A stretch of DNA of 64,000 nucleotides from a virus (taxonomy: Duplodnaviria; Caudoviricetes), in the IMG/VR virus record IMGVR_UViG_3300048011_000285, positions 7,113 through 71,112 of that record, one strand, 5' to 3'. Numbering within the stretch: the stretch's first letter is position 1; every line of letters begins with the position of its first letter. The position numbers and the translations under genes are program-made. The notes under the pieces were generated by a model, which did not search any database, was not told the origin of the DNA, and was given only the letters and a program-made list of their open reading frames with translations. Below are positions 3,414-56,472 of this stretch, in pieces.

Positions 3414-6212
3414 ATGAGCTATGTAGACGCATACTACAACAAAGATAAAGATATTGTGCAAGTTGTTGAGCGTATCAACGGCAAACGCATTTATCAAGAC
3501 TATCCTGCGTGGCGTACATTCTATGTACGTGACGATAGGGGATCTCATACAAGTATTCACGGCGAGAAAGTACGTCAAGTAAAAGTGAAACGCTTAAAGG
3601 ATATGCATAAAGAGCTACGTATAAACTCAGATAAAAAGATTTATGAAAGTGATATTAAACCTGAGGTTCGCTGTTTAGCAGAGAACTATCTAGGTAAGGA
3701 CTCTCCTGAATTGAATGTAGCGTTTTTCGATATCGAGGTAGACTTTGATGCTGACCGAGGCTTTGCTCCGCCAGAAGATCCGTTCATGCCAATTACAGCG
3801 ATTACAGTTCATCTACAGTGGTTAGACCAACTTGTAACGTTTGTTATCCCGCCTGAAAATATGCGTGATGGTGCAGGACTAGAAGAAGCACAACGTCTGT
3901 GTGATAAATTCGAGAATACATTCTTGTATCTATCAGAAGCAGATATGCTTAACGACTTTCTAGCCCTCATTGAGGATGCAGATGTTCTCAGTGGTTGGAA
4001 CTCTGAGGGTTTCGATATTCCATATACTGTCAATCGTATTATTCGTATTTTAAGTAAATCGCATTTGCGCAAACTATGTTTGTGGGACTTGATGCCGAAG
4101 TCAAAGATGATTGTCAAGTATGGACGTGAACAACAGAGCTACGTGTTATCTGGTCGCATTCACCTTGATTATCTTGAACTGTATCGCAAGTATACATATC
4201 ATGAAATGCATTCATATTCACTTGATGCTATTGGTGAATACGAAGTAGGTGAGAAGAAGATTGCTTATGAAGGTACACTAGATCAGTTGTACAACCAAGA
4301 CTTCTACAAGTTTATTGAATATAATAGACAAGACGTTGCACTACTTGACCAGTTGGATAAGAAGCTACGCTTTATTGATTTAGCAAACGAAATTGCACAC
4401 GACAATACTGTTAACATTCAAACTACGATGGGTGCGGTTGCTGTTACTGAACAAGCCATCATTAACGAAGCACATCGACGGGGTATGGTTGTCCCAGATA
4501 GAAAACGCCGTAGTTGGGATACAGAAGAGGAAGATTATGAGCCCACTCTAGAGGAAGAAGCAGATGCAGAAGCACAGAAAGCTGCAGGCGCATTTGTTGC
4601 TGACCCACAAAAGGGCATACAACGCTGGGTAGCAGGCATTGATATTAACTCACTATATCCTTCTATCATTCGAGCCTTGAATATGTCACCAGAGACTATT
4701 ACTGCACAGCTACGACAAGATTATACAACTGAAATGATTTCATCACGTATTCAAAAAGGTCGTGGCGGAAAGAATAAAGGCTTTGGTGCAGCACAAGCAT
4801 GGGAAGATACATTCTGTACAGAAGAATTCCGTTTCATGAATGAGAAAGATAAAACACATATGATGCATCTTGATATGGAGAACGAAGAGGTTCATCAAGT
4901 ATCAGGCGCAGAAGCATATGATTTGCTTTATAACTCAGGGTTACCTTGGGCTATGAGTGCAAATGGTACTGTCTTCAAGCAAGATGTACAAGGGATCATC
5001 CCTAGCTTGCTAGAGCGTTGGTATGCAGAACGTAAAGTTCTACAGAAGAACATGCGCGAAGTTCGTGAAAAAGGCGGAACTGATGAAGAGATTGCATTCT
5101 GGGATAAACGACAACTTGTTAAAAAGATTAACTTGAACAGTCTGTATGGTGCGATTTTGAATCAGGGTTGTCGCTTTTACGATAAACGCATCGGACAATC
5201 AACTACATTGTCTGGTCGTTGTATCACACGTCACATGGGTGCTAAGACTAATGAAGTTATCGATGGCACGTATGACTATAAAGGCAAGTCTGTAATCTAT
5301 GGCGACACTGACTCTATCTATTATTCAATGTATCCTTCATATCAAAAAGAGATTGATAGCGGTGAGATTGAATGGGATAAAGAAATTGCTCTGACAATGT
5401 ATGATGAAATTGCTGACCAAGTGAATTCAAGTTTCCCTGACTTTATGAAAGAGTTCTTTAACTGTCCACGTAAGCAAGGTGAAATCATTGCAGCGGGCCG
5501 TGAAAACTTAGCAACAATGGCTATCTTCATTAAGAAGAAACGCTATGCTATGTTGATTTACGATGATGATGGTGTACGCCGTGACGTAGATGGTAAGCCT
5601 GGTAAAGTGAAAGCTATGGGACTTGATTTGAAACGTAGTGATACGCCAGACTATATGCAGAAGTTTTTGAGTGAATGTCTACTTACTGTTCTTACTGACG
5701 GCACACAAGATGATCTTATTGAAATGGTAAAAGAATTCAAGAAAGAGTTTCGTGAAAAACCCGGTTGGGAGAAGGGTACTCCTAAGCGTGTTAACAATTT
5801 GACTAAATTCAAGAATGATGTTGCGAAATATAAGAAAGCACAAAATGCTGAATTTAAATTGCGTAGTTCAGAAGATAAGCTACAGAAGCCAAGACTTCCG
5901 GGGCATGTAAGTGCGGCTCTTAATTGGAATACATTGCGTGAAATGAATAGCGACAAATACTCAGTTGAGATTACAGATGGCATGAAAACTATCGTATGTA
6001 AACTCAAAGACAACCCAATGAAGATTACAAGTGTTGCATATCCAATTGATGAGTCTCGCATTCCACAATGGTTTCAAGACTTACCGTTTGATCATGATTT
6101 GATGGAAACAGCAATTATTGACAAGAAGATTGATAATCTTATTGGTGTTCTTAAATGGGACTTGAGTGCGGCAAGCACTAGTGAAACTTTTGATAATTTG
6201 TTTGATTTTTAA
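3414..6212 (+). CDS. DNA polymerase, family B (T4 gp43-like)
   Basis: Exo motifs FFDIEV, GWNSEGFDIPY, YNRQD; pol motifs DINSLYPS, KINLNSLYG, YGDTDS, KKRY. Confidence 0.97.
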   Translation: MSYVDAYYNKDKDIVQVVERINGKRIYQDYPAWRTFYVRDDRGSHTSIHGEKVRQVKVKRLKDMHKELRINSDKKIYESDIKPEVRCLAENYLGKDSPELNVAFFDIEVDFDADRGFAPPEDPFMPITAITVHLQWLDQLVTFVIPPENMRDGAGLEEAQRLCDKFENTFLYLSEADMLNDFLALIEDADVLSGWNSEGFDIPYTVNRIIRILSKSHLRKLCLWDLMPKSKMIVKYGREQQSYVLSGRIHLDYLELYRKYTYHEMHSYSLDAIGEYEVGEKKIAYEGTLDQLYNQDFYKFIEYNRQDVALLDQLDKKLRFIDLANEIAHDNTVNIQTTMGAVAVTEQAIINEAHRRGMVVPDRKRRSWDTEEEDYEPTLEEEADAEAQKAAGAFVADPQKGIQRWVAGIDINSLYPSIIRALNMSPETITAQLRQDYTTEMISSRIQKGRGGKNKGFGAAQAWEDTFCTEEFRFMNEKDKTHMMHLDMENEEVHQVSGAEAYDLLYNSGLPWAMSANGTVFKQDVQGIIPSLLERWYAERKVLQKNMREVREKGGTDEEIAFWDKRQLVKKINLNSLYGAILNQGCRFYDKRIGQSTTLSGRCITRHMGAKTNEVIDGTYDYKGKSVIYGDTDSIYYSMYPSYQKEIDSGEIEWDKEIALTMYDEIADQVNSSFPDFMKEFFNCPRKQGEIIAAGRENLATMAIFIKKKRYAMLIYDDDGVRRDVDGKPGKVKAMGLDLKRSDTPDYMQKFLSECLLTVLTDGTQDDLIEMVKEFKKEFREKPGWEKGTPKRVNNLTKFKNDVAKYKKAQNAEFKLRSSEDKLQKPRLPGHVSAALNWNTLREMNSDKYSVEITDGMKTIVCKLKDNPMKITSVAYPIDESRIPQWFQDLPFDHDLMETAIIDKKIDNLIGVLKWDLSAASTSETFDNLFDF

Positions 6213-6796
6213 TGGCTAAAAGAACACACTTAGAACTAGTACAAAACTTAGGTAGAAATGCTGCATCGGATGAGTGTTATACTCCACCCGATTCAGTTGA
6301 ACCATTGTTGAAGTACTTAGATAAAGATAAGACTTACTATGAAGCAACTAGCGGAAAGTCAGGGCTTATTGTAGAAGGATTTGCCAAGTTTGGTTATAAT
6401 ATCGAACCTAGTAATGGAAAAGATTTCTTTGAATGTGCACCTAGTGATGTGCATGATGGAGTTATCACAAACCCTCCCTACTCACTAAAAGATAAGTTTA
6501 TCCGACATTGTTATGATTTGGGTAAACCGTTTGCTCTATTCTTACCAGTAGCAAGTTTTCAAGGATCAGCACGTGGTAAGATGTTTATGGAGTATGGCAT
6601 GTCAGCACTAGTATACAACAATCGTGTTGACTTCACAGGAGGAGGATCCCCAACATTCGGTAACGCTTGGTTTATACATGGGTTCTTACCACCGAATACA
6701 ATCTATTGGGTAGATAATCCATCTACAGCAAATCCAAGAAAACAAAAAACAGATGATATTGCAGAAAAAACGTTTGACACGTTGTTTGATTTGTGA
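6212..6796 (+). CDS. DNA N6-adenine methyltransferase (small phage type)
   Basis: DECYTP, DFF and ITNPPYS motifs. Confidence 0.8.
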   Translation: MAKRTHLELVQNLGRNAASDECYTPPDSVEPLLKYLDKDKTYYEATSGKSGLIVEGFAKFGYNIEPSNGKDFFECAPSDVHDGVITNPPYSLKDKFIRHCYDLGKPFALFLPVASFQGSARGKMFMEYGMSALVYNNRVDFTGGGSPTFGNAWFIHGFLPPNTIYWVDNPSTANPRKQKTDDIAEKTFDTLFDL

Positions 6797-6802
6797 TATA
6801 GT
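6774..6802 (+). promoter_or_regulatory. Sigma70-type promoter overlapping the MTase 3' end
   Basis: TTGACA-17-TATAGT; GGAG RBS before ATG 6830. Confidence 0.65.
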
Positions 6803-6829
6803 AGAACTAATAAAATATAGGAGAACGCA

Positions 6830-7585
6830 ATGCGTGACATTTTAAAAGATATTGTGAAGCACACACATTCGCTTGGTATCATCCAAGCAGCAAAAGTGAC
6901 AACAGACAGCGAAGCAACAACACTAGATGCGATGGACGATGACCGTACCGTTGTACTACGTGCAAAGCTACATGACCGTGTACCAGAATTTGAAGGCAAG
7001 TTCGGTCTAGGTCGTCTTGGGGTACTAAACGGTTATCTCGGTTATGAAAGCCGCAACAACGAAAATGAAGTCGTGGGTACACATGTAGAGATTAATCGTG
7101 TAGAGCGCAACGGCGAAGAAGTTCCAGCAGAGTTTAACTTTACTATTCCAGGTATTCTGAATTCTACATATCGTGTAATCACCGCAGAACTTGTTGATGC
7201 ACAGATCAAAACAGCAAACTTCAAAGGTGCAAAGTGGGATGTTGAAGTAATGCCAACACAACAAGCAATCAAAGATTTGCAAACTGTTGCGGGTATTCTA
7301 TCAGCATATGATCCATTGTTCACAGTACGTACAGTAGACGGAAATCTACAGTTTACAATTGGTGATGCATCTACAGATAAAGCAGAGATTACATTTGCTC
7401 GTAATGTAGAAGGCGAACTTAAATCGGGTTGGTCATTCCCACTTTCAACAGTGTTGACAATTCTAAAATTAGGTGATACATCATCTATGAGCATTAAAAT
7501 CTCGGATCAAGGTGCAATGGCTATTCATGTCGATAGCGGAATGGGCCTATATGAGTACATTTTACCTGCTAAATCTGGTAATTAA
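6830..7585 (+). CDS. Probable DNA sliding clamp (gp45/PCNA-like)
   Basis: 251 aa, two-domain beta-rich pattern, C-terminal YEYILPA like PCNA/gp45; next to DNA polymerase. Confidence 0.6.
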   Translation: MRDILKDIVKHTHSLGIIQAAKVTTDSEATTLDAMDDDRTVVLRAKLHDRVPEFEGKFGLGRLGVLNGYLGYESRNNENEVVGTHVEINRVERNGEEVPAEFNFTIPGILNSTYRVITAELVDAQIKTANFKGAKWDVEVMPTQQAIKDLQTVAGILSAYDPLFTVRTVDGNLQFTIGDASTDKAEITFARNVEGELKSGWSFPLSTVLTILKLGDTSSMSIKISDQGAMAIHVDSGMGLYEYILPAKSGN

Positions 7586-7627
7586 CCTAAATAAAAGTAT
7601 AACAATATACAAAGGATACAATAATAA

Positions 7628-9190
7628 ATGGTTAAAGACTTAGGTAAAAACAACATCAGTAGCGGTTATGCAGTATTTCTGCCCGCTATTTCTAGCTTCT
7701 ATGTTCGTAAGGTATCACAACATTACGCAGGCACGACAGACATGTTCCCTCCTGAGCGTATCCCTCAGGGATTTGAACATGGACTAGATGGACTAAACAT
7801 CTTAGACAAAGATAAAGGCTATGTGTACTATTCGCATGGTCTTTACTCTGCCGGACATGCAGAACTAGACTTAGAAAAAACTAAAATCGAAGACGGCATG
7901 GTTGTCAATCGTAATAGAGAAGAAACAGTTTTAGTAGGGGATTCAGGAGGGTATCAGATTGGCACCGGTGCTTGGAAACTAGACTGGTCTTCATTCTATG
8001 ATAAAGAAGGGGATTGGGCAAATACACGTCATGGTATTATGGCGTGGCTTGAAGAATATTGTGATTATTCTATGACACTTGATATTCCAGGATGGGCATG
8101 TTTGCCACAGTATCGTGATAAAAACGGTATCAAAAACTGGGATGAATGTGTAGATAAAACAATCTTCAATCACGAATACTTTATCAACAACCGCACACCA
8201 GGCAAGACTAAGTTCTTAAACACTCTACATGGTTCCAATTGGGAAACTAGCGAGAGATGGTACGAGAAAGTCAAGCACTTCAATGATAAGTCAGTATATG
8301 GCGAAAGAGCATTTGAAGGTTATGCGATGGCAGGGGATCATGCGGGTGATGCAGAACTACTACTACGTAGACTTATTCGTTTACGTGATGATGGTTTGCT
8401 CGGACAAGCAAACCAATCAGATGTTTGGATTCATACTCTTGGTATAAGCGTTCTCCCATGGGGTGCTATGTTAACAGCAATCCAACGACAGCTACGAAAG
8501 CATGTTAATCCAAACATCACAATCTCTTTTGATGCAGCGTCTCCCTATATTACTGCATCAAAAGGGTTAGCTTATGACTATCCTGACTTAAATGGCAACG
8601 CTTGGTCTTACAAGACTAAGAAGTTGAATTGGCGTCAAGATATCAGCAATGATAAACAACCCTGGTTGTATGAAGGGGAAATCGGCTCACGTTTGAATAT
8701 GCGAGATATCAATTACATGCAGCCCGGTATGCTAAATCGCAACAAAAAAGAAGCTAAATCAAGTTGGGATAGTCTAAGCTATATTTTAATTCAAGCACAC
8801 AATGCCGAATATCATATTCGTGGTATGCAAGACGCAATACGCAGGTTCGATCACGAATATGAAATGTTACATGATAAATTAGATATCAATAACATGAATT
8901 TGGGTAAAACTAACGTGCTATCCGATGTAGTTCCGGATAGAGTTCTATACTTTGCTAAGTTCGTAGAAGAATTGTTTGATCCCAAGACAACTGACCCAAT
9001 GAAAATGTTGGGCGACTTCAAAGCGTTTCTACGTAAATGTGAAGGTTCCCGTGTTCAGAACATTTCTACAACTCCAGACTTTATGGAGTTCGAAGAAGCA
9101 AATGTAAAGACAGATGAATTCGTAGAAGCAGTTAAGGGCAAGAAGAAAGAATACGAAGAACCTGAAGGAATAGAAGACTTATTCGGATAA
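7628..9190 (+). CDS. tRNA/DNA-guanine transglycosylase (TGT/DpdA-like)
   Basis: GDSGGYQ, MTLDIP, IHTLG and SFDAASP motifs of the TGT fold; adjacent to QueD/FolE/QueE. Confidence 0.75.
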   Translation: MVKDLGKNNISSGYAVFLPAISSFYVRKVSQHYAGTTDMFPPERIPQGFEHGLDGLNILDKDKGYVYYSHGLYSAGHAELDLEKTKIEDGMVVNRNREETVLVGDSGGYQIGTGAWKLDWSSFYDKEGDWANTRHGIMAWLEEYCDYSMTLDIPGWACLPQYRDKNGIKNWDECVDKTIFNHEYFINNRTPGKTKFLNTLHGSNWETSERWYEKVKHFNDKSVYGERAFEGYAMAGDHAGDAELLLRRLIRLRDDGLLGQANQSDVWIHTLGISVLPWGAMLTAIQRQLRKHVNPNITISFDAASPYITASKGLAYDYPDLNGNAWSYKTKKLNWRQDISNDKQPWLYEGEIGSRLNMRDINYMQPGMLNRNKKEAKSSWDSLSYILIQAHNAEYHIRGMQDAIRRFDHEYEMLHDKLDINNMNLGKTNVLSDVVPDRVLYFAKFVEELFDPKTTDPMKMLGDFKAFLRKCEGSRVQNISTTPDFMEFEEANVKTDEFVEAVKGKKKEYEEPEGIEDLFG

Positions 9191-9200
9191 GGAGGTATAT

Positions 9201-9380
9201 ATGACACCCGAAAAGAAACAAGCACGACTAGATAGCCTAAGAAAAAAGCACAGAGAACTTGACAATCATATCAAAAAAGAGTATAACTTACACTTAGATG
9301 TGAATCATTTAAAATCTGAGAAACTACGAATGAAATCAGAGATTTATGCTTTAGAGCGGGAACTTGGAGATAATGGGTAG
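9201..9380 (+). CDS. Small coiled-coil protein, DUF465/YdcH-like (59 aa, not in ORF track)
   Basis: GGAGG RBS; MTPEKKQARLDSLRKKHRELDNHIK...LKSEKLRMKSEI. Confidence 0.7.
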   Translation: MTPEKKQARLDSLRKKHRELDNHIKKEYNLHLDVNHLKSEKLRMKSEIYALERELGDNG

Positions 9381-9828
9381 TTACTATAATTATATGCTAA
9401 CAGAAACTAGGAAAGCAAACATGAAAGACGATATGGAAAAACAAAAACAAAATGCAAAACGTTGGATTTGGGTTACTTTTCAAAAAGAAGGTATTCACAA
9501 GTATCCAGCTGCATTGACAGATCCTGCTCTAGCGACAGGCGATGAATATGATGTATCTTTTTTGGGATATCCGCATCGTCACATGTTTCATTTCCGTGTA
9601 GCAATTAAAGTAACACATAATGACAGAGACATTGAATTCATTCAATTCAAGCGTTGGTTAGAAAACTTGTACAAAGATAATGTTATCGAACTTGATTATA
9701 AATCATGCGAAATGATGTCTGATGATTTGTTTGATCAAATCGTTGCGAAGTATCCAGGGCGTGATATTAAAATCGAAATCTCTGAAGACGGAGAAAACGG
9801 AGCATTAGTAGAATATGACGCTCAGTGA
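9373..9828 (+). CDS. queD: 6-carboxy-tetrahydropterin synthase, QueD-like (T-fold)
   Basis: EGIH, HRHMFH, DRDIEF and SCE motifs; lies in the queuosine-gene cluster. Confidence 0.75.
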   Translation: MGSYYNYMLTETRKANMKDDMEKQKQNAKRWIWVTFQKEGIHKYPAALTDPALATGDEYDVSFLGYPHRHMFHFRVAIKVTHNDRDIEFIQFKRWLENLYKDNVIELDYKSCEMMSDDLFDQIVAKYPGRDIKIEISEDGENGALVEYDAQ

Positions 9829-10339
9829 AGAAATTCAAGCGATGGTTAGGGTAGTACCTGATCATCCACAACCAGGTATTATGTATCAGGACATGGCTAG
9901 TATCTTTAATCATCCTTCAGGATTGACTAAAGTTATTCAAGCATTTCAAGAACAGAATATCATCTACGACAGAATCGTGGGATTAGACGCACGTGGCTTT
10001 CCAATGGCTGGTGCGCTAAGTGCTATTACAGGCAAACCGTTTGTTATGGCACGTAAGAAAGGTAAACTTCCGGGTGAGACTATCTCAACGGAATACGAAT
10101 TAGAATACGGAACAGACGAACTACACCTTCAAACTGACTCAGTGTTAGACGATGACCGTGTTCTAATAATTGATGATGTTATTGCAACTGGTGGGACACT
10201 ACTAGCGGCTACATCATTGATAGAACGAATGAATGGTAACATAGTTGGTATTCATTCGATTATGGACTTGACTTTTTTAGGCGGGTCTGATAAACTGAGA
10301 GCTAAGGGATATCCCGTGTTCTCAATACTAAGTGAATAA
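9815..10339 (+). CDS. apt: Adenine phosphoribosyltransferase
   Basis: PDHPQPGI, LDARGF, ARKKGKLPG, YELEYG, IIDDVIATGGT. Confidence 0.93.
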   Translation: MTLSEEIQAMVRVVPDHPQPGIMYQDMASIFNHPSGLTKVIQAFQEQNIIYDRIVGLDARGFPMAGALSAITGKPFVMARKKGKLPGETISTEYELEYGTDELHLQTDSVLDDDRVLIIDDVIATGGTLLAATSLIERMNGNIVGIHSIMDLTFLGGSDKLRAKGYPVFSILSE

Positions 10340-10357
10340 AATGGCAAAGGAAATTAG

Positions 10358-11425
10358 ATGCTATATCTTATAGACTTGGAGAGTGTTGAATCTCGCTATA
10401 CTAAGCAGTGGAAAACACATCTCCCCACATTGTTACAAAGTAACGGGATTGATGTTACTGTGATTGACGGTCCAACCGACATTCCAGAAGCCACTACACC
10501 CGGTGCTTTTCTTAACTTTGGTGGAACGAACATCTATAAGAGCGCACAATTAGAGAAGATTGCAAAACTTATCTGTGATGGCGAAGTCAAAGATGGGGAT
10601 TACTTTCTTTATACTGATGCGTGGAATCCCACTGTTATCCAGCTGAAATATATGGCAGAATTGCTTGGGATAAAAATCCGAATCGGTGGTTTGTGGCATG
10701 CTGGTAGCTACGATCCACAAGATTTCCTAGGACGTTTAATTGGTAATGCTTCATGGGTTCGTAAAGCGGAAATGAGTATGTACGATTGTTATGATGATAA
10801 CTTTTTTGCTACTAAGTTCCATATTGATTTGTTTACAAATACATTTTGGGACGATGACCGTGATATCGACAGGCAACTACTTCACTCTATTAGACAAGTG
10901 GGTTGGCCTATGGAATACATTGAAGAGGATCTCAGAGAGTATAAGAGTATGGCGAAAGAGGACATCATAGTATTCCCACATCGTATTGCTCCTGAGAAAC
11001 AGCCAGAAGTCTTTGACTATATTGCTGAACAGATGCCAGAGTATCAGTTCATTAAATGTCAAGAATTAAACTTAACAAAGCCAGAATATCACGCTTTGCT
11101 CGGAAGAGCGAAATTAGTGTTTAGTGCTAACTTGCAAGAAACTCTAGGCATTTCTGTCTATGAAGGATTGCAAGTTGGTGCTATCCCTATGGTTCCAGAT
11201 AGTCTCTCGTACAGTGAAATGTGGAGTGATCAATTCAAGTATCCAAGTGAATGGACTTCTTCATTAGATGCAACAAAGAAAAACATTGAAAATATTAAAG
11301 CATATATTCATATGCAAATGTCAAAGAATAGTGACCTAACTTGGACAATGAATGAAGAACTACGTAATGTAGAAAAGTTCTATTCGGGAAATAAACTAGT
11401 AACATATCTTAAAGAAAACACATGA
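10358..11425 (+). CDS. Glycosyltransferase (GT-B / GT4-like)
   Basis: FPHRIAPEK and QETLGISVYEG (E-x7-E) motifs, VPDSLSYSEM. Confidence 0.75.
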   Translation: MLYLIDLESVESRYTKQWKTHLPTLLQSNGIDVTVIDGPTDIPEATTPGAFLNFGGTNIYKSAQLEKIAKLICDGEVKDGDYFLYTDAWNPTVIQLKYMAELLGIKIRIGGLWHAGSYDPQDFLGRLIGNASWVRKAEMSMYDCYDDNFFATKFHIDLFTNTFWDDDRDIDRQLLHSIRQVGWPMEYIEEDLREYKSMAKEDIIVFPHRIAPEKQPEVFDYIAEQMPEYQFIKCQELNLTKPEYHALLGRAKLVFSANLQETLGISVYEGLQVGAIPMVPDSLSYSEMWSDQFKYPSEWTSSLDATKKNIENIKAYIHMQMSKNSDLTWTMNEELRNVEKFYSGNKLVTYLKENT

Positions 11426-11481
11426 TAAATACATATGATAGAGAGTATCCCAGCTTTCTATCATATTTTGGGAGACATAAT

Positions 11482-11784
11482 ATGGCTCGTTACAGAGGTA
11501 TGATTACTAACAATATTAAGTTTGATGCAACAATCAAGGTTCGCCGTTCTATTGACTTGCGCGAATTATCAGACTTTGGTTCAATAACAGATGCAGCACG
11601 AGATTTACCAACAGCAGGTGCAACACATCGCAGATCAACGGGTAGTTCAACTTCAGCGACTCGCGGATATGCAGACTTGCGTGGTATTCATAGTGAAGTA
11701 GTAGTTGATCGCCAAGATATGGGTTTAATTGCTGATACAGCAAGAGACACATTAGGCTATAATGATGAACCTTATCTACACTAA
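11482..11784 (+). CDS. Hypothetical protein, possibly late-expressed
   Basis: GGAG RBS before ATG 11482; GATAAATA at 11424; recurring DxGxI-like motifs. Confidence 0.55.
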   Translation: MARYRGMITNNIKFDATIKVRRSIDLRELSDFGSITDAARDLPTAGATHRRSTGSSTSATRGYADLRGIHSEVVVDRQDMGLIADTARDTLGYNDEPYLH

Positions 11785-11802
11785 TATTTTTTAAATAAAG
11801 TA

Positions 11803-11847
11803 TTGACAATTTAACCCACTTGTAGTATTATATATTATGAGTGGGTT
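11803..11847 (+). promoter_or_regulatory. Sigma70-type promoter with inverted repeat flanking the -10 box
   Basis: TTGACA-17-TATTAT; AACCCACT (11813-20) / AGTGGGTT (11840-47). Confidence 0.6.
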
Positions 11848-11885
11848 TACCATATACACATCTAAAATAAAGGAACATAGTATAA

Positions 11886-12572
11886 ATGACAAAGACTTCC
11901 GAAATAAAGGAACGCTTGATTGAAAATAATATCAGGCATTGGGCAGGTGACAATATTAGTCAAGTCCTACAGCCCGGCGATAAAGACATTCTAATAGATG
12001 AAGCAACAGATGCATTCGAAAATGTACTTGATGCACTTATTATTGATCGTGAAAACGATCCTAACTCGCAAGGCACAGCAAAGCGTTTAGCTAAAATGTA
12101 TTTCAATGAGATTATGGCAGGACGTTATGATACAGCACCTAGCGCAACAGCGTTTCCTAACGACAACGGACATACTTATAAAGGTATGTTGGTAGTTCGT
12201 TCTGAACTTAAATCAATGTGTTCGCATCATCATCAGCCTGTTGCTGGGATTGCATACATAGGTATCATTCCCGGTGAGAAAGTTATTGGACTTTCAAAGT
12301 ATACTCGTATTGCACAATGGTGCGCAAGACGTGGTACACTACAAGAAGAACTGTGCAATGATATCATGCGTGAGATTATAAAGGCAACTGATAGTGAACA
12401 CGTAGGTGTTTACATTCAAGCAACACATGGCTGTTGTGAGAATCGTGGCATTATGGCGCATAGTAGCTTAACACAGACTACAGTTCTTAATGGTGGGTTC
12501 TTAGATGATCCTAGTGTTAAGAAAGAATTCTTCGACAATATCAAACTACAACAGGAGTTTGCTCCACGATGA
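11886..12572 (+). CDS. folE: GTP cyclohydrolase I
   Basis: SMCSHH, GLSKYTR, LQEEL and HGCCENRG motifs. Confidence 0.95.
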   Translation: MTKTSEIKERLIENNIRHWAGDNISQVLQPGDKDILIDEATDAFENVLDALIIDRENDPNSQGTAKRLAKMYFNEIMAGRYDTAPSATAFPNDNGHTYKGMLVVRSELKSMCSHHHQPVAGIAYIGIIPGEKVIGLSKYTRIAQWCARRGTLQEELCNDIMREIIKATDSEHVGVYIQATHGCCENRGIMAHSSLTQTTVLNGGFLDDPSVKKEFFDNIKLQQEFAPR

Positions 12573-13507
12573 TAGAAGCACCAGTTTTTGAAAAGGGATA
12601 TCCGTCACATGAGGCAGTTAACAGAAAGCCAGCTATGAAACTAAGATATTCAGAAGCGTTCTATTCATTACAGGGCGAAGGAAAATTCGTAGGGGTACCT
12701 AGTGTATTCTTACGAACCTTTGGTTGTAATTTACGTTGTCAAAATTTCGGACTAAATAAAGATAGAGAGAAATCAAGGTATAATCCTGAGGTTGAACAAC
12801 TTATTAAGGATGGGGTACATGAGACTGCAAAACGATTTGAAGACTTACCTATTATACACACAGGATGCGACACATATGCTAGTATCTATCCTGAGTTCAA
12901 GCATCTAGTTCACGATTCTACAATCGATGAAGTAGTAGAACATTTGCTATCTCTTACTCCACAGGGCAAATGGACACAAGACGATGGACAAGACATTCAT
13001 TTAATTTTAACAGGTGGCGAACCGTTGTTGGCGTGGCAACGACTATACGTTGAACTTTTTGAGCATCCACGAATGCAGGATTTAAAGAATGTTACATTTG
13101 AAACAAACACTACACAACATCTACATGACGATTTCTACAACTATCTCAACAACCACGACGACCTTACAGTCACTTGGAGTTGCTCCCCAAAACTTAGTGT
13201 TTCAGGAGAACGTTGGGAAGATGCTATTAAACCTGATGTTGCTAGTGAGTACCAGTGTGTTACTGATAGCGACATGTATCTCAAGTTTGTTGTCGCTAGC
13301 CAAGATGATTTTGCAGAAGTCGAAAAAGCTGTTAGTGCTTATCAAGATGCCGGGGTACAATGTCCAGTATATCTTATGCCGCTGGGCGGACGCAGTGAAG
13401 AATATGCTCTCAACGTTAAAGACGTGGCGGAAGCCTGCATGGCGAGAGGATGGCGATTTACACCAAGACTACACATTTCACTCTTCGGAAATGCCTGGGG
13501 AACTTAG
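12569..13507 (+). CDS. queE: 7-carboxy-7-deazaguanine synthase (radical SAM)
   Basis: EAFYSLQGEG, FLRTFGCNLRC, CDT, TGGEP, SPKL, RLHI. Confidence 0.9.
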   Translation: MIEAPVFEKGYPSHEAVNRKPAMKLRYSEAFYSLQGEGKFVGVPSVFLRTFGCNLRCQNFGLNKDREKSRYNPEVEQLIKDGVHETAKRFEDLPIIHTGCDTYASIYPEFKHLVHDSTIDEVVEHLLSLTPQGKWTQDDGQDIHLILTGGEPLLAWQRLYVELFEHPRMQDLKNVTFETNTTQHLHDDFYNYLNNHDDLTVTWSCSPKLSVSGERWEDAIKPDVASEYQCVTDSDMYLKFVVASQDDFAEVEKAVSAYQDAGVQCPVYLMPLGGRSEEYALNVKDVAEACMARGWRFTPRLHISLFGNAWGT

Positions 13508-13573
13508 GCAAAATGAACAACTACGTAGAGCTATGGAAGCTCCAATAGACTATGAAAAGATAAGGAAACGATT

Positions 13574-13756
13574 GTGAAAGATCCAAAAGTAGCAAAATTA
13601 GTCAAGGAATTAGACGACCATATAAAGTCCATTAATAAATTGAATGTAGCTCTTCATAAACAAGGAGTCACATATCGTATTGAAGATGGACATAATGTTG
13701 AAACAGGCGCAAAGATTGTATCTATTCAATATCTTAGACAAACTATTGAATATTAA
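13574..13756 (+). CDS. Hypothetical protein
   Basis: 60 aa ORF in operon, AGGA RBS. Confidence 0.55.
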   Translation: MKDPKVAKLVKELDDHIKSINKLNVALHKQGVTYRIEDGHNVETGAKIVSIQYLRQTIEY

Positions 13757-13770
13757 TAAAGGAAACCACT

Positions 13771-14859
13771 ATGAATCAAAACTATATTTTTACGAGCGAA
13801 AGTGTTAGCGCAGGACATCCAGATAAGGTTGCAGACCAAATCAGTGATGCTCTAGTTGATGCCGGGTTCAAAGCAGGCGATGAAACGACTCGTGTTGCTG
13901 TCGAAACACTTGTAACTACCAATCATGTAACATTGGCGGGCGAAGTAAAAAACTTTAACGTAAGCAAAGATGAAGTTAAAAAAATCGTGCGAAATAAAGT
14001 TAAAGAAATTGGTTATGAGCAAGAAGGGTTTCATTGGGATAATCTAAACATCTATAATGAACTACATGAACAAAGTGCAGACATTGCACTTGGTACAGAT
14101 GATTTTGGTGCAGGGGATCAAGGTATCATGTTTGGCTATGCATGTAATGACAACGATGCATACTTGCCAGCGCCTATTTACTATGCACATGAAGTTCTTA
14201 AAGAACTTAAAAGTCAAAGACAACATGTATTAGGCCCAGATGCTAAATCACAAGTAAGTGTGCAGTATGATGGTGGGCGTGTACAGCGTATCGACCAAGT
14301 TGTTATTTCAACACAACACGGCGAAGGACAAGTAGAGCAAGCAAGAAATATTAGTAAACTTGCTGCAATGAATGTATTAGGAGACTTAGTTGATGAAGAT
14401 ACTGTATGGCATCTTAATCCCACTGGTAATTTTGTTATTGGCGGGCCTGATGGTGACGCTGGTGTTACTGGACGTAAGATTATCGTTGATACTTATGGGG
14501 GCTTTGCTCCCCACGGCGGCGGCGCTTTTAGTGGCAAGGATCCGACAAAAGTAGATCGTAGTGCTGCATATATGGCACGTTGGTTAGCAAAGAACGTAGT
14601 GGCAGATGAAATGGCAGACTGGTGCAATATTCAGTTATCATACGCTATTGGTGTTAAGCAACCAACAAGTATCTATGTAGAATCCAATGGATACAGCAAG
14701 AGCATCGAAAAGTTTATTCGTGAGAATATCGATTTGAGTCCAAAAGGAATCATTGATCGTTTCGATATGTTTAATTTTTATAACTACAGTGAGAACTGTG
14801 TATATGGTCACTTCGGAGATAAAGATGTGTCATGGGAAAAGATTGGATGGGATCTATGA
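13771..14859 (+). CDS. metK: S-adenosylmethionine synthetase
   Basis: FTSESVSAGHPDK, GAGDQG, GGGAFSGKDPTKVDRS. Confidence 0.97.
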   Translation: MNQNYIFTSESVSAGHPDKVADQISDALVDAGFKAGDETTRVAVETLVTTNHVTLAGEVKNFNVSKDEVKKIVRNKVKEIGYEQEGFHWDNLNIYNELHEQSADIALGTDDFGAGDQGIMFGYACNDNDAYLPAPIYYAHEVLKELKSQRQHVLGPDAKSQVSVQYDGGRVQRIDQVVISTQHGEGQVEQARNISKLAAMNVLGDLVDEDTVWHLNPTGNFVIGGPDGDAGVTGRKIIVDTYGGFAPHGGGAFSGKDPTKVDRSAAYMARWLAKNVVADEMADWCNIQLSYAIGVKQPTSIYVESNGYSKSIEKFIRENIDLSPKGIIDRFDMFNFYNYSENCVYGHFGDKDVSWEKIGWDL

Positions 14860-15197
14860 GTTTTTATAAAACAAATGAAGAACAAGAAGTTATTTCAATT
14901 GATGAATTCGCTAACGAATGGTATGATAGAGAAGAATACATCTTTGTTGACATCAGAGAAGAAACCGAAATAGCAGAACAAGGTAGTATTAAGAATGCAT
15001 TCAATATTTCAATGTATGACATTCCAGAAAATATCGATATGGCGCCTACATACATTATATGTATTCTTGTATGTGATAATGGCGCAAGGTCAGAACAGGT
15101 TGTAAAGTACTTAAAGAACAATGACTATAATAACATGTTTGCACTAGAAGGCGGTATTGGAAAATTGTTTGAAGCACTACCGGAAGTGAAGGGATAA
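14856..15197 (+). CDS. Rhodanese-like sulfurtransferase domain protein
   Basis: VDIRE, CDNGARS active-site loop, LEGGI. Confidence 0.85.
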   Translation: MSFYKTNEEQEVISIDEFANEWYDREEYIFVDIREETEIAEQGSIKNAFNISMYDIPENIDMAPTYIICILVCDNGARSEQVVKYLKNNDYNNMFALEGGIGKLFEALPEVKG

Positions 15198-15198
15198 T

Positions 15199-15666
15199 AT
15201 GATTAATATACTAAAACCAAAGACTTGGTTTATGACTGATGAAGAAATCAAGCGCAGCGAAGCAAGACAGATCGAAAATGAAACAAAAATGGAAATGCGT
15301 TTCTCTGAAATTGATTTAGAATTTGGTCGCATTACTCAAGACGAACATGATAAAAAAGTAGCAACCTTAAGTGGTGATCCGTATGTGAAAGTTCTTAATA
15401 TCGATTTAGATGAAAATGCGCCAGGCGCTGGGTTCTTTGAATTAGATTTCAATGAACATTTTGTAGAGTATCTAGCTAATAGTGGGTACGAAGGAGTAGA
15501 ACCAGATGAAATCGTAGACAACTGGTTCAACGACTTGTGTAAAAACATTGTATTAAATGACTTAGAAGATGAAACAGGTGATCCGCGTAGCTTTGATGTA
15601 ACAAGCAAAGAAGGTTTAATCATCAATCGTCTAAAAACTAACGATAACACCGCAGAATATTCTTGA
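15199..15666 (+). CDS. Conserved phage hypothetical protein
   Basis: 155 aa acidic ORF in operon. Confidence 0.6.
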   Translation: MINILKPKTWFMTDEEIKRSEARQIENETKMEMRFSEIDLEFGRITQDEHDKKVATLSGDPYVKVLNIDLDENAPGAGFFELDFNEHFVEYLANSGYEGVEPDEIVDNWFNDLCKNIVLNDLEDETGDPRSFDVTSKEGLIINRLKTNDNTAEYS

Positions 15667-15723
15667 CATAATGTTCGTTCCGTGTTACATTAAATTCGAT
15701 AAAGTTAAATAAAGGTTACATTA

Positions 15724-16725
15724 ATGGCTACATTCATTCTAGTTGATAGTTTCAACATGTATCATCGTGCTAAACACGTTGCGATGCGTGGCGCAGATAT
15801 TGATATGAAAATCGGTATGGCATTTCACATTATGATGAACAGTGTTAAAATGTGTTATCAAAAGTTCAACGCAGACCACGCAGTGTTTTGCCTTGAGGGA
15901 CGTTCATGGCGTAAAGACTTTTATACTCCATATAAAGCACAGCGTAAAGTAGCACAACAAGCTAAGTCTATGCGTGAACAAGAAGAAGATGCAATCATGT
16001 TTGGTGCATACGATGATCTTGTTACATTCTTGCGTGAAAAGACTAACGTGACAATGCTACGCCATCAAGAGGCAGAAGCAGATGATATGATTGCTCTATT
16101 CATTGCATCACATCCCGATGATCATCATATCATTGTAAGTAGCGATAGTGACTATCAGCAACTTATCTGCGATAACGTAACTATCTATGATGGGGTTCAG
16201 AACCGTATCATTACTAAAGATGGCTTCTTTAAAGATGATAAGAACATGACTCCAATCAAAGACAAAAAGACTAAAGAAGTGATGGGTGCTCCCGATCCTG
16301 AATGGTTATTGTTTGAGAAGTGTATCCGTGGAGATACAAGTGATAACATCTTTAGTGCATATCCTGGTTGTCGTAAGAAAGGCACTAAGAATAAAGTAGG
16401 CATGATTGAAGCATTTGAAGATCGTGATACAGGCGGGTTTAGTTGGAATAACTTTATGCTACAGCGTTGGACAGATCACAATGGAGAAGAGCATGTAGTT
16501 CGTGATATGTATGAGCGTAATAAGACACTAATTGACTTGACTGAACAGCCTACAGACTTGAAAGTAAAGTTCATTGAAACTATTGCAGAAGAAAGTACGC
16601 CGAAGCGTGTTAATGGCGTTGGACTTAACTTCCTTAAGTGGTGTGGGATATGGGATTTACAGAACTTAGCTAAAGCACCAGATGAAATGGCAGCTATTCT
16701 CAATAAGGCATACCCACATGCTTAA
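15724..16725 (+). CDS. 5'-3' exonuclease / T4 RNase H-like (FEN family)
   Basis: LVDSFN, WRK..Y..YK..R, EADD, SSDSDYQQL, GDTSDNI. Confidence 0.92.
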   Translation: MATFILVDSFNMYHRAKHVAMRGADIDMKIGMAFHIMMNSVKMCYQKFNADHAVFCLEGRSWRKDFYTPYKAQRKVAQQAKSMREQEEDAIMFGAYDDLVTFLREKTNVTMLRHQEAEADDMIALFIASHPDDHHIIVSSDSDYQQLICDNVTIYDGVQNRIITKDGFFKDDKNMTPIKDKKTKEVMGAPDPEWLLFEKCIRGDTSDNIFSAYPGCRKKGTKNKVGMIEAFEDRDTGGFSWNNFMLQRWTDHNGEEHVVRDMYERNKTLIDLTEQPTDLKVKFIETIAEESTPKRVNGVGLNFLKWCGIWDLQNLAKAPDEMAAILNKAYPHA

Positions 16726-25328: not shown

Positions 25329-25369
25329 GAGGGAGGAGTATTGACTTCTCCCTCTTTTTATAGTATAAT
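25329..25369 (+). terminator. Rho-independent terminator overlapping a sigma70 promoter
   Basis: GAGGGAGGAGT-attg-ACTTCTCCCTC-TTTTT; TTGACT(25341)-17-TATAAT(25364). Confidence 0.75.
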
Positions 25370-25376
25370 AAGAATA

Positions 25377-34093: not shown

Positions 34094-34109
34094 AAGTATA
34101 AATATCACT

Positions 34110-44081: not shown

Positions 44082-44878
44082 TGTGTAACTTTATTCCAAC
44101 TGTTTAATATTAAATCTTCGAATTCTTTTCCGCCATATTGGCCATGAACAATCATATGAACACGAACTTCGTCTGTATCATTCATCACCGCGTGTTTGTG
44201 TCCTACATTCATTTTAAACATTTTGCCTGGCTTCCACGGAACATAAGCATTGTCATCAATCATCTTAAAGTAGCAATGCTCTGGGTTGTTCAACGATATA
44301 TTTAGCGGTCCTAATTTGTCGTGTTCATAATCAGTGTGCGGAGTAATATAACCTCCTGGCTCAAGATACATATATCTAACTCTATCAAATGTATGATAGC
44401 CAGGAATAGATTTGATCATCTCTACAGTTGTCGGACATTTATCAGCAATCTCTGTCCAACCATATGCTTTACGTGCTTCGTGTTCATCTTTGTATGTAAA
44501 GCCTGCTGCGATTACATCTTTGCTGTCCCAATGTTGAGATACATGCTTATGTAACCCATGTAGCGTCAGGGAGCGCCATCCTCTGTGTCCGTAGTCATCA
44601 GGGTTGTTCTCATCGTAATCGTTCTTTCTATGTTGAATTGCTTCATCATATACAGACATTGCCTCATCATAGCATTTCTTCCAGTCGAACTCTGGGACAT
44701 CTAATTCAAGCCATGGAATACCTGACTCATGCGTCACCCACTTTGATTTTCTAAAACGTGCTGTTGGAGGGAATGTAGGCTCATTTATCATAGCATCTAC
44801 AAATGCGGCTGGCATCGTATCAAAGCTATAACTATTTCTATCTTTAAAATGTTCTTCTATTGTTTTTGGGTATTCCAT
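44078..44878 (-). CDS. Aspartyl/asparaginyl beta-hydroxylase-like Fe/2OG oxygenase
   Basis: LEPGGYITPHTD, HAVMN..E.RVHMI. Confidence 0.85.
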   Translation of the reverse strand: MEYPKTIEEHFKDRNSYSFDTMPAAFVDAMINEPTFPPTARFRKSKWVTHESGIPWLELDVPEFDWKKCYDEAMSVYDEAIQHRKNDYDENNPDDYGHRGWRSLTLHGLHKHVSQHWDSKDVIAAGFTYKDEHEARKAYGWTEIADKCPTTVEMIKSIPGYHTFDRVRYMYLEPGGYITPHTDYEHDKLGPLNISLNNPEHCYFKMIDDNAYVPWKPGKMFKMNVGHKHAVMNDTDEVRVHMIVHGQYGGKEFEDLILNSWNKVTQ

Positions 44879-56443: not shown

Positions 56444-56472
56444 ATTATAACAGATTAATCGTCTGTTGTAAA
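56444..56472 (-). promoter_or_regulatory. Sigma70-type promoter for the GT-repeat gene
   Basis: TTTACA-17-TATAAT on the minus strand. Confidence 0.55.

Follow-up and report, generated by a model that had tools for sequence, protein, structure and literature searches.

The window, which is the whole stretch of 64,000 nucleotides analysed here, carries a block of 7-deazaguanine genes directly after replication genes (Table 1). The source record spans 71,112 bases and is a fragment, its completeness being estimated at 17%, so the absence of a gene from this record is little informative. The original prediction had named TGT-like, QueD-like, apt, GT-B, folE, queE and metK genes; all of them were present in their places on the + strand. 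Two labels were altered, QueD-like in this block and QueC-like for a distant gene. Three additional ORFs that had gone unnamed were also observed, namely a 120-aa ORF, a 60-aa ORF and a gene for a rhodanese-domain protein. Searches of Pfam, PHROG and NCBIfam with the 120-aa ORF gave no family match, and a homolog was found in 1 of 80 related viral loci.

Table 1. Features of the modification locus and of the distant PP-loop gene (coordinates refer to the window).
Feature	Coordinates	Strand	Evidence
B-family (T4-type) DNA polymerase, marker of the replication module hosting the modification genes	3414..6212	+	Pfam DNA_pol_B E 2.1e-36; phrog_262 E 1.7e-196
194-aa protein	6212..6796	+	phrog_799 (DNA methyltransferase) E 3.1e-32, partial (profile positions 210-391 of 458)
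251-aa conserved replication-module protein (clamp-like)	6830..7585	+	phrog_12062 (function unknown) E 1.9e-43
520-aa divergent TGT-superfamily (DpdA-like) transglycosylase	7628..9190	+	AF2 model, Foldseek, VIA
DpdL homolog, QueD-paralogous T-fold protein	9364..9828	+	Motif; phrog_17812 E 3.4e-33; phiST gp040 match
Adenine phosphoribosyltransferase (APRT), inserted between dpdL and the glycosyltransferase	9815..10339	+	NF002636 181.3 bits vs 125; NF002634 178.3 vs 170
GT4-like GT-B glycosyltransferase, 355 aa	10358..11425	+	AF2 model, Foldseek, VIA
120-aa ORF between glycosyltransferase and folE	11422..11784	+	
GTP cyclohydrolase I (FolE), first deazaguanine-pathway step	11886..12572	+	PF01227 E 8.3e-39; phrog_2197 E 2.1e-45
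QueE-like radical SAM enzyme (CDG synthase)	12569..13507	+	phrog_2076 E 4.1e-54
60-aa ORF	13574..13756		
S-adenosylmethionine synthetase (MetK)	13771..14859	+	TIGR01034 418.9 bits vs 309.4
Rhodanese-domain protein	14832..15197	+	PF00581 E 2.4e-10
155-aa conserved protein closing the module, immediately before the RNase H/5'-3' exonuclease gene	15199..15666	+	phrog_13349 E 5.4e-19
RNase H/5'-3' exonuclease gene	15724..16725		
PP-loop protein gene	44878..45561	opposite	Pfam QueC E 6.2e-7

Because the 80 viral loci are interrelated, their counts are not independent events; the counts are also bounded by locus length. The TGT-like gene is present in all 80 by selection, the clamp-like gene in 79, polB in 76, dpdL in 69, the glycosyltransferase gene in 62, folE in 42 and queE in 34, with the conserved order PolB, clamp-like, TGT-like, DpdL, glycosyltransferase, FolE, QueE and RNase H. 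The 155-aa protein was found in 30 of the 80 loci and in all 29 that span the module. Placement of the block beside a polymerase and a clamp held for the polymerase, which is of the B family by both Pfam and PHROG. The 251-aa protein, in contrast, fell into no named family in Pfam or PHROG and a PDB sequence search gave no match; it is possibly a sliding clamp, a label whose sole source is the depositor annotation of a homologous Phosso gene (37% identity, E 1e-53), and in PA5oct the corresponding gene carries a structural-protein annotation. The 194-aa protein, for which a Pfam search gave no match, is found in 7 of the 80 loci and ends in ...FDTLFDL, akin to the polymerase tail ...FDNLFDF.

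The 520-aa protein was modelled with AF2 (pLDDT 76.1, pTM 0.80, residues about 476-507 with low confidence). Every one of the top 50 Foldseek matches was a tRNA-guanine transglycosylase (E 3.4e-6 and probability 1.00 for the best), and VIA matched the model to 1iq8_A at Z 18.1 (307 aligned, rmsd 5.1) and to 6h62_A at Z 17.9. The TGT/DpdA-like call was thus upheld for the fold but not for the sequence family, as no model of Pfam, PHROG, NCBIfam or PADLOC, including every TGT or DpdA sequence model, matched the protein. Profile comparison of the family with DpdA proteins gave low probabilities throughout (ACP17 5.8%, X1 0.4%, phiST 20.6%). The motifs GDSGG[YF]Q and SFD[CAS][AS] are kept in 79 of 79 locus homologs. 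The protein is predicted to exchange guanine in DNA for deazaguanine. A queuosine- or archaeosine-like role on tRNA would agree with the nearest solved structures, but is very unlikely given that 79 of the 80 loci have the gene fixed between the polymerase and clamp-like genes on one side and RNase H on the other, and that the protein tail in the window's clade (...EDLFG) resembles that of the DNA polymerase. According to the cited account, the phage deazaguanine systems studied so far all insert the base into DNA via DpdA-family proteins (PMC10516641). In addition, DNA of the related phage PA5oct resists five restriction enzymes, a pattern read in the END nuclease preprint as a modified G of unassigned structure (PMC12191111).

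The T-fold gene that follows had been labelled QueD-like. Its motif L-GYP-HRH-M-F fits the signature LxxxHRHxF in place of CxxxHGH, a search with the PTPS model gave no match, and the protein shares 31% identity (E 3e-17) with phiST gp040; QueD identity was therefore rejected in favour of a DpdL-type QueD paralog. The LxxxHRHxF motif is kept in 67 of 67 DpdL locus homologs. Alignment with homologs begins at about residue 30, so the true start probably lies downstream of the TTG at 9364. Cui, Hutinet et al. have described this signature and proposed the QueD paralog as a decarboxylase that converts 7-carboxy-7-deazaguanine (CDG) to 7-deazaguanine (NAR 2023, PMC10516641). The presence of DpdL therefore predicts 7-deazaguanine (DG) as the base scaffold, as in the Cellulophaga phage phiST, with no requirement for QueC. 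The block does lack QueC, QueF and Gat-QueC, as was noted originally, but this is no anomaly since the known DpdL pathway expects that pattern; in the cited account, DpdL-type gene sets are defined by the missing QueC (PMC10516641). All of five related records, of which two are 99-100% complete, encode canonical QueD at another genomic site, and QueC was found in none of the five. FolE and QueE are present in most of the 29 module-spanning loci (FolE in 22, QueE in 28). In the window, FolE scores under the NCBIfam cut-offs, and the QueE-like protein gives weak NCBIfam QueE matches (E 6.8e-14 to 2.7e-9), all under cut-off.

A distant gene, about 31 kb away, had been regarded as QueC-like. If it completed the preQ0 pathway, the DNA would carry dPreQ0 or a derivative, and its Pfam QueC score (29.6 bits vs a cut-off of 22) favours this. 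However, its TIGR00364 score of 25.4 bits is below the cut-off of 150.3 and about equal to its scores with asparagine synthase and TilS models, and the gene lies on the other strand within a radical SAM/SPASM cluster and has no homolog among the 80 loci. It was rejected as QueC and is taken as a generic PP-loop protein, and the preQ0 route is the least probable of the readings considered here.

The glycosyltransferase model (pLDDT 85.7, pTM 0.84) has a GT4-like GT-B fold, with matches to BshA in Foldseek (6n1x, E 5.6e-9) and to 6kih_A (Z 24.4, rmsd 3.2, 316 aligned) and 6n1x_A (Z 23.5) in VIA. The E-x7-E motif is formed by E261 and E269, both invariant in the alignment. Pfam Glycos_transf_1 matches the window protein at E 0.017 vs 8e-12 for the homolog in Xanthomonas X1. 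All 51 related viral loci that leave 1500 nt or more of room have the gene, starting no further than 1600 nt behind dpdL. All 38 loci that extend 6500 nt or more past the TGT-like gene contain dpdL, and the 29 module-spanning loci all hold both genes. Among cultured phages, a glycosyltransferase match was found in 18 of 28 records having a DpdL match, and the gene recurs with DpdA/DpdL genes in shuffled order in PA5oct, ACP17, Phosso, BUCT-ZZ01 (two glycosyltransferases) and Xanthomonas X1. Genome assemblies revealed the glycosyltransferase next to a homolog of the window's TGT-like protein in 22 of 25 loci seeded with the glycosyltransferase; 13 of the 22, alphaproteobacterial, gave no FolE, QueE or DpdL match within 8 kb. 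These results support the glycosyltransferase as an integral and conserved partner of DpdL and the transglycosylase, and the proposal that it belongs to the module, for which co-occurrence with DpdA genes had been suggested as a check, was borne out.

The solved structures closest to the glycosyltransferase belong to enzymes that act on small molecules (BshA, MshA, sucrose-phosphate synthase and BGluT), which counts against a sugar on the base; they include tetrahydrobiopterin glucosyltransferase (5zer_A, Z 19.7; 9v0l, Foldseek E 9.1e-7). T4 DNA alpha-glucosyltransferase ranks lower (1y6f_A, Z 16.9, rmsd 4.4, 297 aligned). The DNA could hold plain 2'-deoxy-7-deazaguanosine (dDG), with the glycosyltransferase acting on a small molecule (a pterin or an intermediate), on a protein, or on the free base to give a protective or transport form stripped before insertion. 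In favour of this, 7-deazaguanine has no hydroxyl acceptor, and phiST, with DpdL and DpdA3 and no homolog of this glycosyltransferase, is reported to show complete dDG substitution (PMC10516641). Against it, the glycosyltransferase adjoins DpdL without exception in the 51 loci above, and the 13 alphaproteobacterial loci have no FolE, QueE or DpdL match nearby and therefore no pterin pathway at hand. Furthermore, E. coli given dpdL and dpdA of ACP17 alone produced no dDG, and the authors suspected a missing enzyme (PMC10516641). That outcome also weighs against the main reading, in which DpdL makes 7-deazaguanine. On balance, plain dDG is regarded as rather unlikely.

APRT, MetK and the rhodanese are clade-specific add-ons. 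APRT was found in 3 of the 80 loci (L007-L009), MetK in the same three and the rhodanese in 2, so the suggestion that APRT and MetK are partners of the module does not hold in general. MetK is present in the related records G001, G006 and G007 and missing from G002 and G008. More plausibly, the three proteins meet the SAM, adenine and Fe-S needs of QueE and the phage's many other radical SAM enzymes rather than taking part in base chemistry. A phosphoribosyltransferase also recurs in sister clades, in PA5oct and in BUCT-ZZ01, but it is of the xanthine/guanine type and distinct from APRT; it lies in the module in 17 of the 29 spanning loci, where a HIT (12/29) or MazG (7/29) hydrolase often comes next. 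Such an enzyme could convert CDG or DG to a ribonucleotide, as happens in the biosynthesis of tubercidin, whose clusters are described as combining CDG, a phosphoribosyltransferase and a decarboxylase without QueC (preprint 10.64898/2026.04.15.718813); host kinases and reductase would then supply a dNTP to the polymerase, and the TGT-like protein would be secondary. This nucleotide-pool route is improbable, however. The xanthine/guanine-type enzyme was not found in the window's record, a 17% fragment, which holds solely the adenine-type APRT, and in a 99%-complete relative with TGT-like, DpdL and glycosyltransferase genes (G002) a PF00156 search gave no match. The TGT-like gene, in turn, is universal in the family, with all 80 loci by selection and 22 of the 25 loci seeded with the glycosyltransferase.

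Overall, gene families, folds and synteny support the original assignment of a 7-deazaguanine DNA-modification module beside replication genes. We consider it reasonably probable that this is a DpdL-type module of a giant, uncultured phage (roughly 350-400 kb) with the glycosyltransferase as integral partner, an estimate that covers module identity and partnership and not a sugar-bearing base. In the route that we infer, FolE would open GTP, canonical QueD, supplied by the host or encoded elsewhere in the genome, would form CPH4, and QueE would yield CDG. DpdL would remove the carboxyl group of CDG, as proposed in the literature, to give 7-deazaguanine, and the divergent TGT-fold enzyme would put it in place of guanine in phage DNA, at the replication fork or behind it. 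The glycosyltransferase may transfer a sugar from an NDP-sugar to deazaguanine, on DNA or as the free base before insertion; we hold this step only tentatively, at somewhat less than even chances. Literature searches turned up no account of a glycosylated 7-deazaguanine in DNA, in agreement with the initial view that it is not known as a described base. We hypothesize its occurrence, and if the sugar reading is true, phage DNA may carry a sugar-bearing purine not described before.

The alpha- and beta-glucosyltransferases of T4 act on 5-hydroxymethylcytosine in DNA. They resemble the window enzyme as phage GT-B enzymes in a DNA-modification context, but many GT4 enzymes outscore T4 alpha-glucosyltransferase as structural match. 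The acceptor also differs: the thymidylate synthase of the window is a true one (338.8 bits vs a cut-off of 327), therefore no hydroxymethyl-pyrimidine acceptor is evident, and no hydroxymethylase was seen within the window. The dDG system of phiST shares FolE, QueE, DpdL with LxxxHRHxF and the lack of QueC in its published description (PMC10516641). It also has a very divergent TGT-fold transglycosylase beside replication genes, and canonical QueD in the genome, which on the window's side is seen in relatives only. Unlike the window, phiST lacks the glycosyltransferase, its transglycosylase has 259 aa and aligns to the 520-aa family over 42 columns (the 20.6% probability above), and its cluster has MazG and a kinase-like ATPase where the window has APRT, MetK and rhodanese. 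The PA5oct group of Pseudomonas jumbo phages (Wroclawvirus) shows identities of 36% for the TGT-like protein, 44-45% for the glycosyltransferase and 59% for DpdL, with the gene order behind the polymerase unchanged and QueE and RNase H coming next, and its DNA was found experimentally to resist restriction at sites containing G; its block differs in holding a xanthine/guanine-type phosphoribosyltransferase and a short-chain dehydrogenase fragment and no APRT or MetK. In huimycin and dapiramicin tailoring, a GT-B enzyme is likewise coupled genetically to FolE, QueD and QueE and acts on a 7-deazaguanine-derived base, but huimycin is described as a free actinomycete secondary metabolite made from preQ0, with neither transglycosylase nor DNA in that account (PMC7439116). 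The GT4-type HuiG is reported to attach GlcNAc to the 2-amino group of the 7-deazapurine (PMC7439116; preprint 10.64898/2026.04.15.718813), which provides a precedent for an N-glycosylated deazaguanine.

The block at 3414-16725, in which every gene lies on the + strand, holds the genes in the order given in the table, and its gene set largely agrees with the original prediction of a 7-deazaguanine module: it belongs to the DpdL-type 7-deazaguanine systems already in print. Cui, Hutinet et al. have described DpdL as a paralog of QueD without the catalytic Cys, defined by the signature LxxxHRHxF in place of the CxxxHGH of QueD, and have reported DpdL-type sets consisting of DpdA, FolE, QueD and QueE without QueC (PMC10516641). 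The gene at 9364-9828 had been labeled QueD-like. Its product carries Leu at the catalytic Cys site within the motif LGYPHRHMF, an instance of the signature retained in all 67 of the 67 homologs covering the site, and gave no match to PTPS (PF01242) at E up to 10. It is 31% identical to gp040 of the Cellulophaga phage phiST (E 3e-17) and 53% identical to the ACP17 gene that its authors named dpdL (E 6e-36, tblastn). Judged by sequence, the gene is a DpdL homolog and not QueD; a role as decarboxylase of 7-carboxy-7-deazaguanine (CDG) is only proposed, as DpdL has been suggested to convert CDG to 7-deazaguanine, an activity unproven in the literature (PMC10516641). The companions expected of a DpdL-type set, namely FolE, QueE and a TGT-like gene, are in the block. 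The protein Atlas gave leads only, to PTPS for DpdL (score 0.93) and to Glycos_transf_1 clusters for the glycosyltransferase (GT).

The absence of QueC, QueF and Gat-QueC is expected because DpdL-type sets are defined without QueC, and from such a set the predicted scaffold is therefore 7-deazaguanine, the base that replaces all guanine in phiST (Table 1, PMC10516641). Canonical QueD was not found in the 71,112-base fragment; it is present elsewhere in the genome in five of five related records, and QueC in none of the five. The distant gene that had been called QueC-like encodes a PP-loop protein scoring 25.4 bits with TIGR00364, below the cut-off of 150.3, and 29.6 bits with Pfam QueC, split over two short stretches. 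It sits within a radical SAM/SPASM cluster, has homologs in 0 of 80 related loci, and its role in the deazaguanine pathway was dropped.

Features of the window, with positions in related loci where a locus is named
Feature	Position	Strand	Remark
T4-type B-family DNA polymerase	3414-6212	+	
Polymerase tail	6191-6212		...FDNLFDF
194-aa protein	6212-6796	+	
Tail of 194-aa protein	6775-6796		...FDTLFDL
251-aa conserved protein	6830-7585	+	clamp-like
520-aa TGT-like protein (transglycosylase)	7628-9190	+	
Transglycosylase tail	9169-9190		...EDLFG
DpdL, 154 aa	9364-9828	+	
APRT	9815-10339	+	
GT, 355 aa	10358-11425	+	
120-aa ORF		+	
FolE		+	
QueE-like radical SAM enzyme		+	
MetK	13771-14859	+	
Rhodanese	14832-15197	+	
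155-aa protein		+	
RNase H/5'-3' exonuclease		+	
Phosphomannomutase, eukaryote-type	16682-17434		directly downstream of module
SbmA/BacA-like transporter	19343-20383		PF05992, E 6.3e-77
AMP-binding enzyme	25341-26744		
Tryptophan halogenase	26741-28438		
Fatty-acid desaturase	28323-29210		
Ketoacyl synthase	29807-30958		
DUF2201 metallopeptidase/VWA-like protein and HNH endonuclease	32756-34649		adjacent genes
Asp/Asn beta-hydroxylase-like protein	44078-44902		
PP-loop protein	44878-45561		formerly QueC-like
Carbamoyltransferase	56455-57987		
Island, Pelagibacterium mangrovi	L104:6083-9029		
Island, Shimia ponticola	L108:7489-10554		ABC-3C defence genes and second GT also present
Two GT genes, Synechococcus phage BUCT-ZZ01	L093:4001-5344 and 6992-8158		flank DpdA-like and DpdL genes
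~174-aa family, e.g.	L017:11943-12455		ahead of DpdL; 23/29 spanning loci
~81-aa family, e.g.	L017:13509-13766		DpdL-GT gap; 19/29 spanning loci
~158-aa family, e.g.	L017:15613-16089		invariant HDHPW; ahead of PRTase; 19/29 spanning loci

The record of 71,112 bases is estimated to be 17% complete, which implies a phage of roughly 350-400 kb; of two complete records that are close or related, one measures 342,607 and the other 353,233 bases. Megablast of the module block against 50,697 phage records and a PADLOC scan of 13 proteins both gave zero matches, and sequence and profile searches of the PDB with the TGT-like, DpdL, GT and clamp-like proteins and with alignments A1 to A4 gave nothing meaningful. 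A scan of 6000-16000 yielded 36 promoter-like sites (33.7 in shuffled sequence) and five terminator-like ones (5.0 in shuffled sequence); no operon structure is claimed.

The label TGT/DpdA-like for the 520-aa product is borne out by its fold. A model built from a 34-homolog alignment (pLDDT 76.1, pTM 0.80) had tRNA-guanine transglycosylases as all of its best 50 Foldseek matches in the PDB (best E 3.4e-6, probability 1.00), VIA-align placed it on the TIM-barrel fold of that enzyme with Z 17.3-18.1 across about 300 aligned residues, and in a viral structure library it matched phage proteins labelled tRNA guanine transglycosylase or queuine tRNA-ribosyltransferase. Two Asp-bearing motifs, GDSGG[YF]Q and SFD[CAS][AS], which may correspond to the catalytic-aspartate motifs of TGT, are invariant in 34 of 34 sequences in A1, the alignment of TGT-like homologs, and in 79 of 79 locus homologs. 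The protein matched no Pfam (including PF01702 at E up to 10), PHROG, NCBIfam or PADLOC Dpd model, and no such match was found in the whole 71,112-base record. The accepted DpdA proteins of phiST, ACP17, X1 and BUCT-ZZ01 were likewise unmatched by the same models, and the sequence-model test thus has little power here. Profile comparison of A1 with DpdA proteins (hhalign) gave low probabilities throughout, at 5.8% for ACP17, 20.6% over 42 columns for phiST (CGPG_00065, gp042) and 0.4% for X1; a BFVD fold search listed one phiST protein (E 3.3e-3). No DpdA subfamily, DpdA3 included, is assigned to the protein. The family is large, with at least 1963 related proteins. Its member in the window is predicted to exchange guanine in DNA for 7-deazaguanine, in the context of its fixed place in the replication module and of the modified G of phage PA5oct. 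The authors of the PA5oct study have interpreted the pattern in which its DNA resists five restriction enzymes as modified G and noted QueE and PTPS genes, and the base is not named in the excerpted text (PMC12191111). Iyer et al. have also listed a deazaguanine synthesis and incorporation system for PA5oct (PMC7824862).

The embedded gene that had been labeled GT-B does encode a protein predicted to have that fold. Its model (pLDDT 85.7) has two Rossmann domains, with VIA Z of 24.4 to sucrose-phosphate synthase (6kih_A) and 23.5 to BshA (6n1x_A) among 163 chains at Z >= 8, and Foldseek returned 354 matches at E <= 0.001 with GT4 enzymes on top (BshA, E 5.6e-9). Residues E261 and E269 in the C-terminal domain are invariant in A2, the alignment of GT homologs. 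They form the E-x7-E motif of GT-B/GT4-like glycosyltransferases. Of 52 locus homologs, 49 contain a match to this pattern, two of these matches lying at another sequence. With Pfam Glycos_transf_1 (cut-off 26.4 bits) the GT reaches only 15.1 bits, and the homologs of X1 and BUCT-ZZ01, at 45.5 and 26.5 bits, exceed the threshold. The search for GT relatives scored at least 8000 proteins.

The distribution of the GT ties it to the module. Eighty viral loci encoding relatives of the transglycosylase were searched with the proteins of the window, and the conserved order was polymerase, 251-aa protein, transglycosylase, DpdL, GT, FolE, QueE, 155-aa protein and RNase H. DpdL was found in 38 of the 38 loci with >= 6500 nt downstream of the transglycosylase, and both DpdL and GT in all 29 module-spanning loci. 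Where >= 1500 nt of room was available, the GT started <= 1600 nt past DpdL in 51/51 viral loci; as these are mutually related, they do not amount to 51 separate occurrences. Other lineages, in which the gene order is shuffled, supply independent support: transglycosylase, GT, DpdL, phosphoribosyltransferase (PRTase) and QueE in PA5oct; QueD, FolE, DpdA, GT, DpdL and QueE in ACP17; FolE, GT, DpdA, DpdL and QueE in Xanthomonas X1; and QueE, PRTase, QueD, FolE, GT, DpdA-like, DpdL and GT in the cyanophage BUCT-ZZ01. Phosso, from another lineage with reshuffled order, also holds the GT alongside module genes. The twin GTs of BUCT-ZZ01 may point to a disaccharide, or to a choice between two sugars, in that phage. 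Among cultured-phage records, 28 have a DpdL match, and 18 of these also match the GT; the ten without it include the five Cellulophaga records.

The pairing extends to prokaryote genome assemblies. In 25 loci seeded from the GT, a transglycosylase homolog adjoins it in 22 (E 1e-13 to 1e-75), the remaining three being short or cut contigs. No DpdL, FolE or QueE match lies within 8 kb in 13 of these 22, from Pelagibacterium, Devosia, Azospirillum, Rhizobiaceae, Shimia, Sulfitobacter, Thalassobius and Roseobacter assemblies. The two islands that were annotated (L104 and L108) have resolvase or integrase genes on either side, and the gene immediately before the GT gives a weak match to a Vut_1/YhhQ-like transporter (E of 1.7e-4 and 3.4e-5, both under the Pfam cut-off). 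Because 13 of the assembly loci pair the two genes without DpdL, the tightest partner of the GT is the transglycosylase rather than DpdL, which favours the deazaguanine scaffold or DNA over a pathway intermediate as the acceptor. The distances of the TGT-like and GT proteins are correlated (Mantel r 0.62, 0/999 permutations), which speaks of joint inheritance only, shared descent being sufficient. Co-occurrence of the GT with the DpdA-like transglycosylase, put forward earlier as a check, is seen in the viral and the assembly loci. A hydroxymethyl-pyrimidine was also considered as the sugar acceptor and was dropped because the thymidylate synthase encoded in the window is a true one, accompanied by DHFR.

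A further feature links the transglycosylase to the polymerase. The C-terminal tail acidic/polar-x-[LM]-F-[DGA]-[FLG] occurs in exactly three of the 155 window ORFs of >= 60 aa, a count that is not unbiased since the pattern was written after the tails were seen. The polymerase tail is conserved family-wide; that of the transglycosylase is confined to this clade (loci L004-L009), and the sister clade has acidic tails without the motif. T4-type polymerases bind the sliding clamp via their extreme C-terminus. The tail of the polymerase, the 194-aa protein and the transglycosylase may be a clamp-binding tail; if binding of the T4 type holds here, the polymerase-like tail would bring the transglycosylase to the clamp and, through it, onto DNA. 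For the 251-aa protein, the name clamp comes from the depositor of Phosso, who gave it to a gene with 37% identity.

That phage DNA of this kind carries a sugar-bearing deazaguanine is a reasonable hypothesis, to which we give somewhat less than an even chance. A fuller form of it, likewise given less than an even chance, is that a GT4 glycosyltransferase and a transglycosylase of a new DpdA-like family, inherited together, would jointly make the 7-deazaguanine in DNA with its sugar, linked for example through N2 or C7. Mobile islands of Alphaproteobacteria from sea and soil would have acquired these two genes as well, there with a YhhQ-like importer as neighbour in place of the biosynthetic genes. 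Within this clade of phages, the polymerase-like tail would tether the transglycosylase to the sliding clamp, coupling modification to replication. What is new is a conserved GT and an unnamed transglycosylase family in an otherwise published DpdL-type system.

Biosynthetic genes are unusually dense for a phage at 20398-31353 and 37617-60552, where some 13 radical SAM proteins, a number of them with SPASM domains, accompany the halogenase, AMP-binding enzyme, ketoacyl synthase, desaturase, beta-hydroxylase-like protein, PP-loop protein and carbamoyltransferase of the table. The set resembles a cluster for tailoring peptides or natural products. In related records, 9-17 radical SAM matches were counted. 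APRT and MetK, which the original prediction had counted as partners of the module, are not general: they are confined to the same 3 of 80 loci (L007-L009), with rhodanese in 2 of 80, and are local additions, probably peripheral to the base chemistry. APRT scores above cut-off with NF002636 (181.3 against 125) and NF002634 (178.3 against 170). Salvage of adenine from spent SAM would be the simpler reading for it, because it travels with MetK in a window so rich in radical SAM genes; radical SAM matches number 17 and 15 in records with MetK and 11 and 9 in those without, which does not discriminate.

A different PRTase is found in the module of other family members, PA5oct and BUCT-ZZ01. The best NCBIfam match of the sister PRTase was xanthine phosphoribosyltransferase in 8 of 8 tested, with every score below cut-off. 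Of the 29 spanning loci, 17 contain this xanthine-type PRTase, frequently accompanied by a hydrolase of the HIT (12) or MazG (7) type; the window lacks all three. In G002, a relative of 99% completeness, there is no PRTase of any kind; because of this, and of the lack of the xanthine type in the window, PRTase is a frequent accessory and not a requirement. It could recycle guanine freed by base exchange. It could also yield a deazapurine nucleotide, in the manner of the tubercidin clusters, which according to a preprint start from CDG (10.64898/2026.04.15.718813). The sister-clade loci L012-L083 have three conserved module families without a counterpart in the window and without a Pfam or PDB match (table). 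The phosphomannomutase downstream of the module (PF03332, E 4.6e-25; 6 of 80 loci) could feed a sugar-nucleotide donor, and other loci have UDP-glucose/GDP-mannose dehydrogenase or oxidoreductases within the module.

To our knowledge, the sugar-decorated DNA bases known so far are all pyrimidines, and the base considered here, if present, would be the first purine of DNA known to be glycosylated. As a new DNA base class, a glycosylated deazapurine would bear on restriction, on CRISPR and glycosylase-based defence, and on nanopore base-calling of environmental phage DNA. Cultured phages with the same genes, namely PA5oct, Paride, ACP17, Phosso, BUCT-ZZ01 and Xanthomonas X1, make a direct test possible. 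Involvement of the GT may also account for the report that dpdL and dpdA of ACP17 yielded no 2'-deoxy-7-deazaguanosine in E. coli (PMC10516641). The 7-deazaguanines described in DNA carry one of eight small side chains (PMC10516641), and the main text of that paper, supplements aside, has zero occurrences of 'glycosyl'. The literature searched on DpdA, DpdL or deazaguanine together with glycosylation, PA5oct, Wroclawvirus or PRTase describes no sugar-bearing deazaguanine in DNA, in agreement with the earlier statement that a glycosylated 7-deazaguanine is not a described base. A chemical precedent exists in a metabolite: in huimycin, according to part of the report, the GT4-type enzyme HuiG transfers GlcNAc onto the 2-amino group of a 7-deazapurine (PMC7439116).
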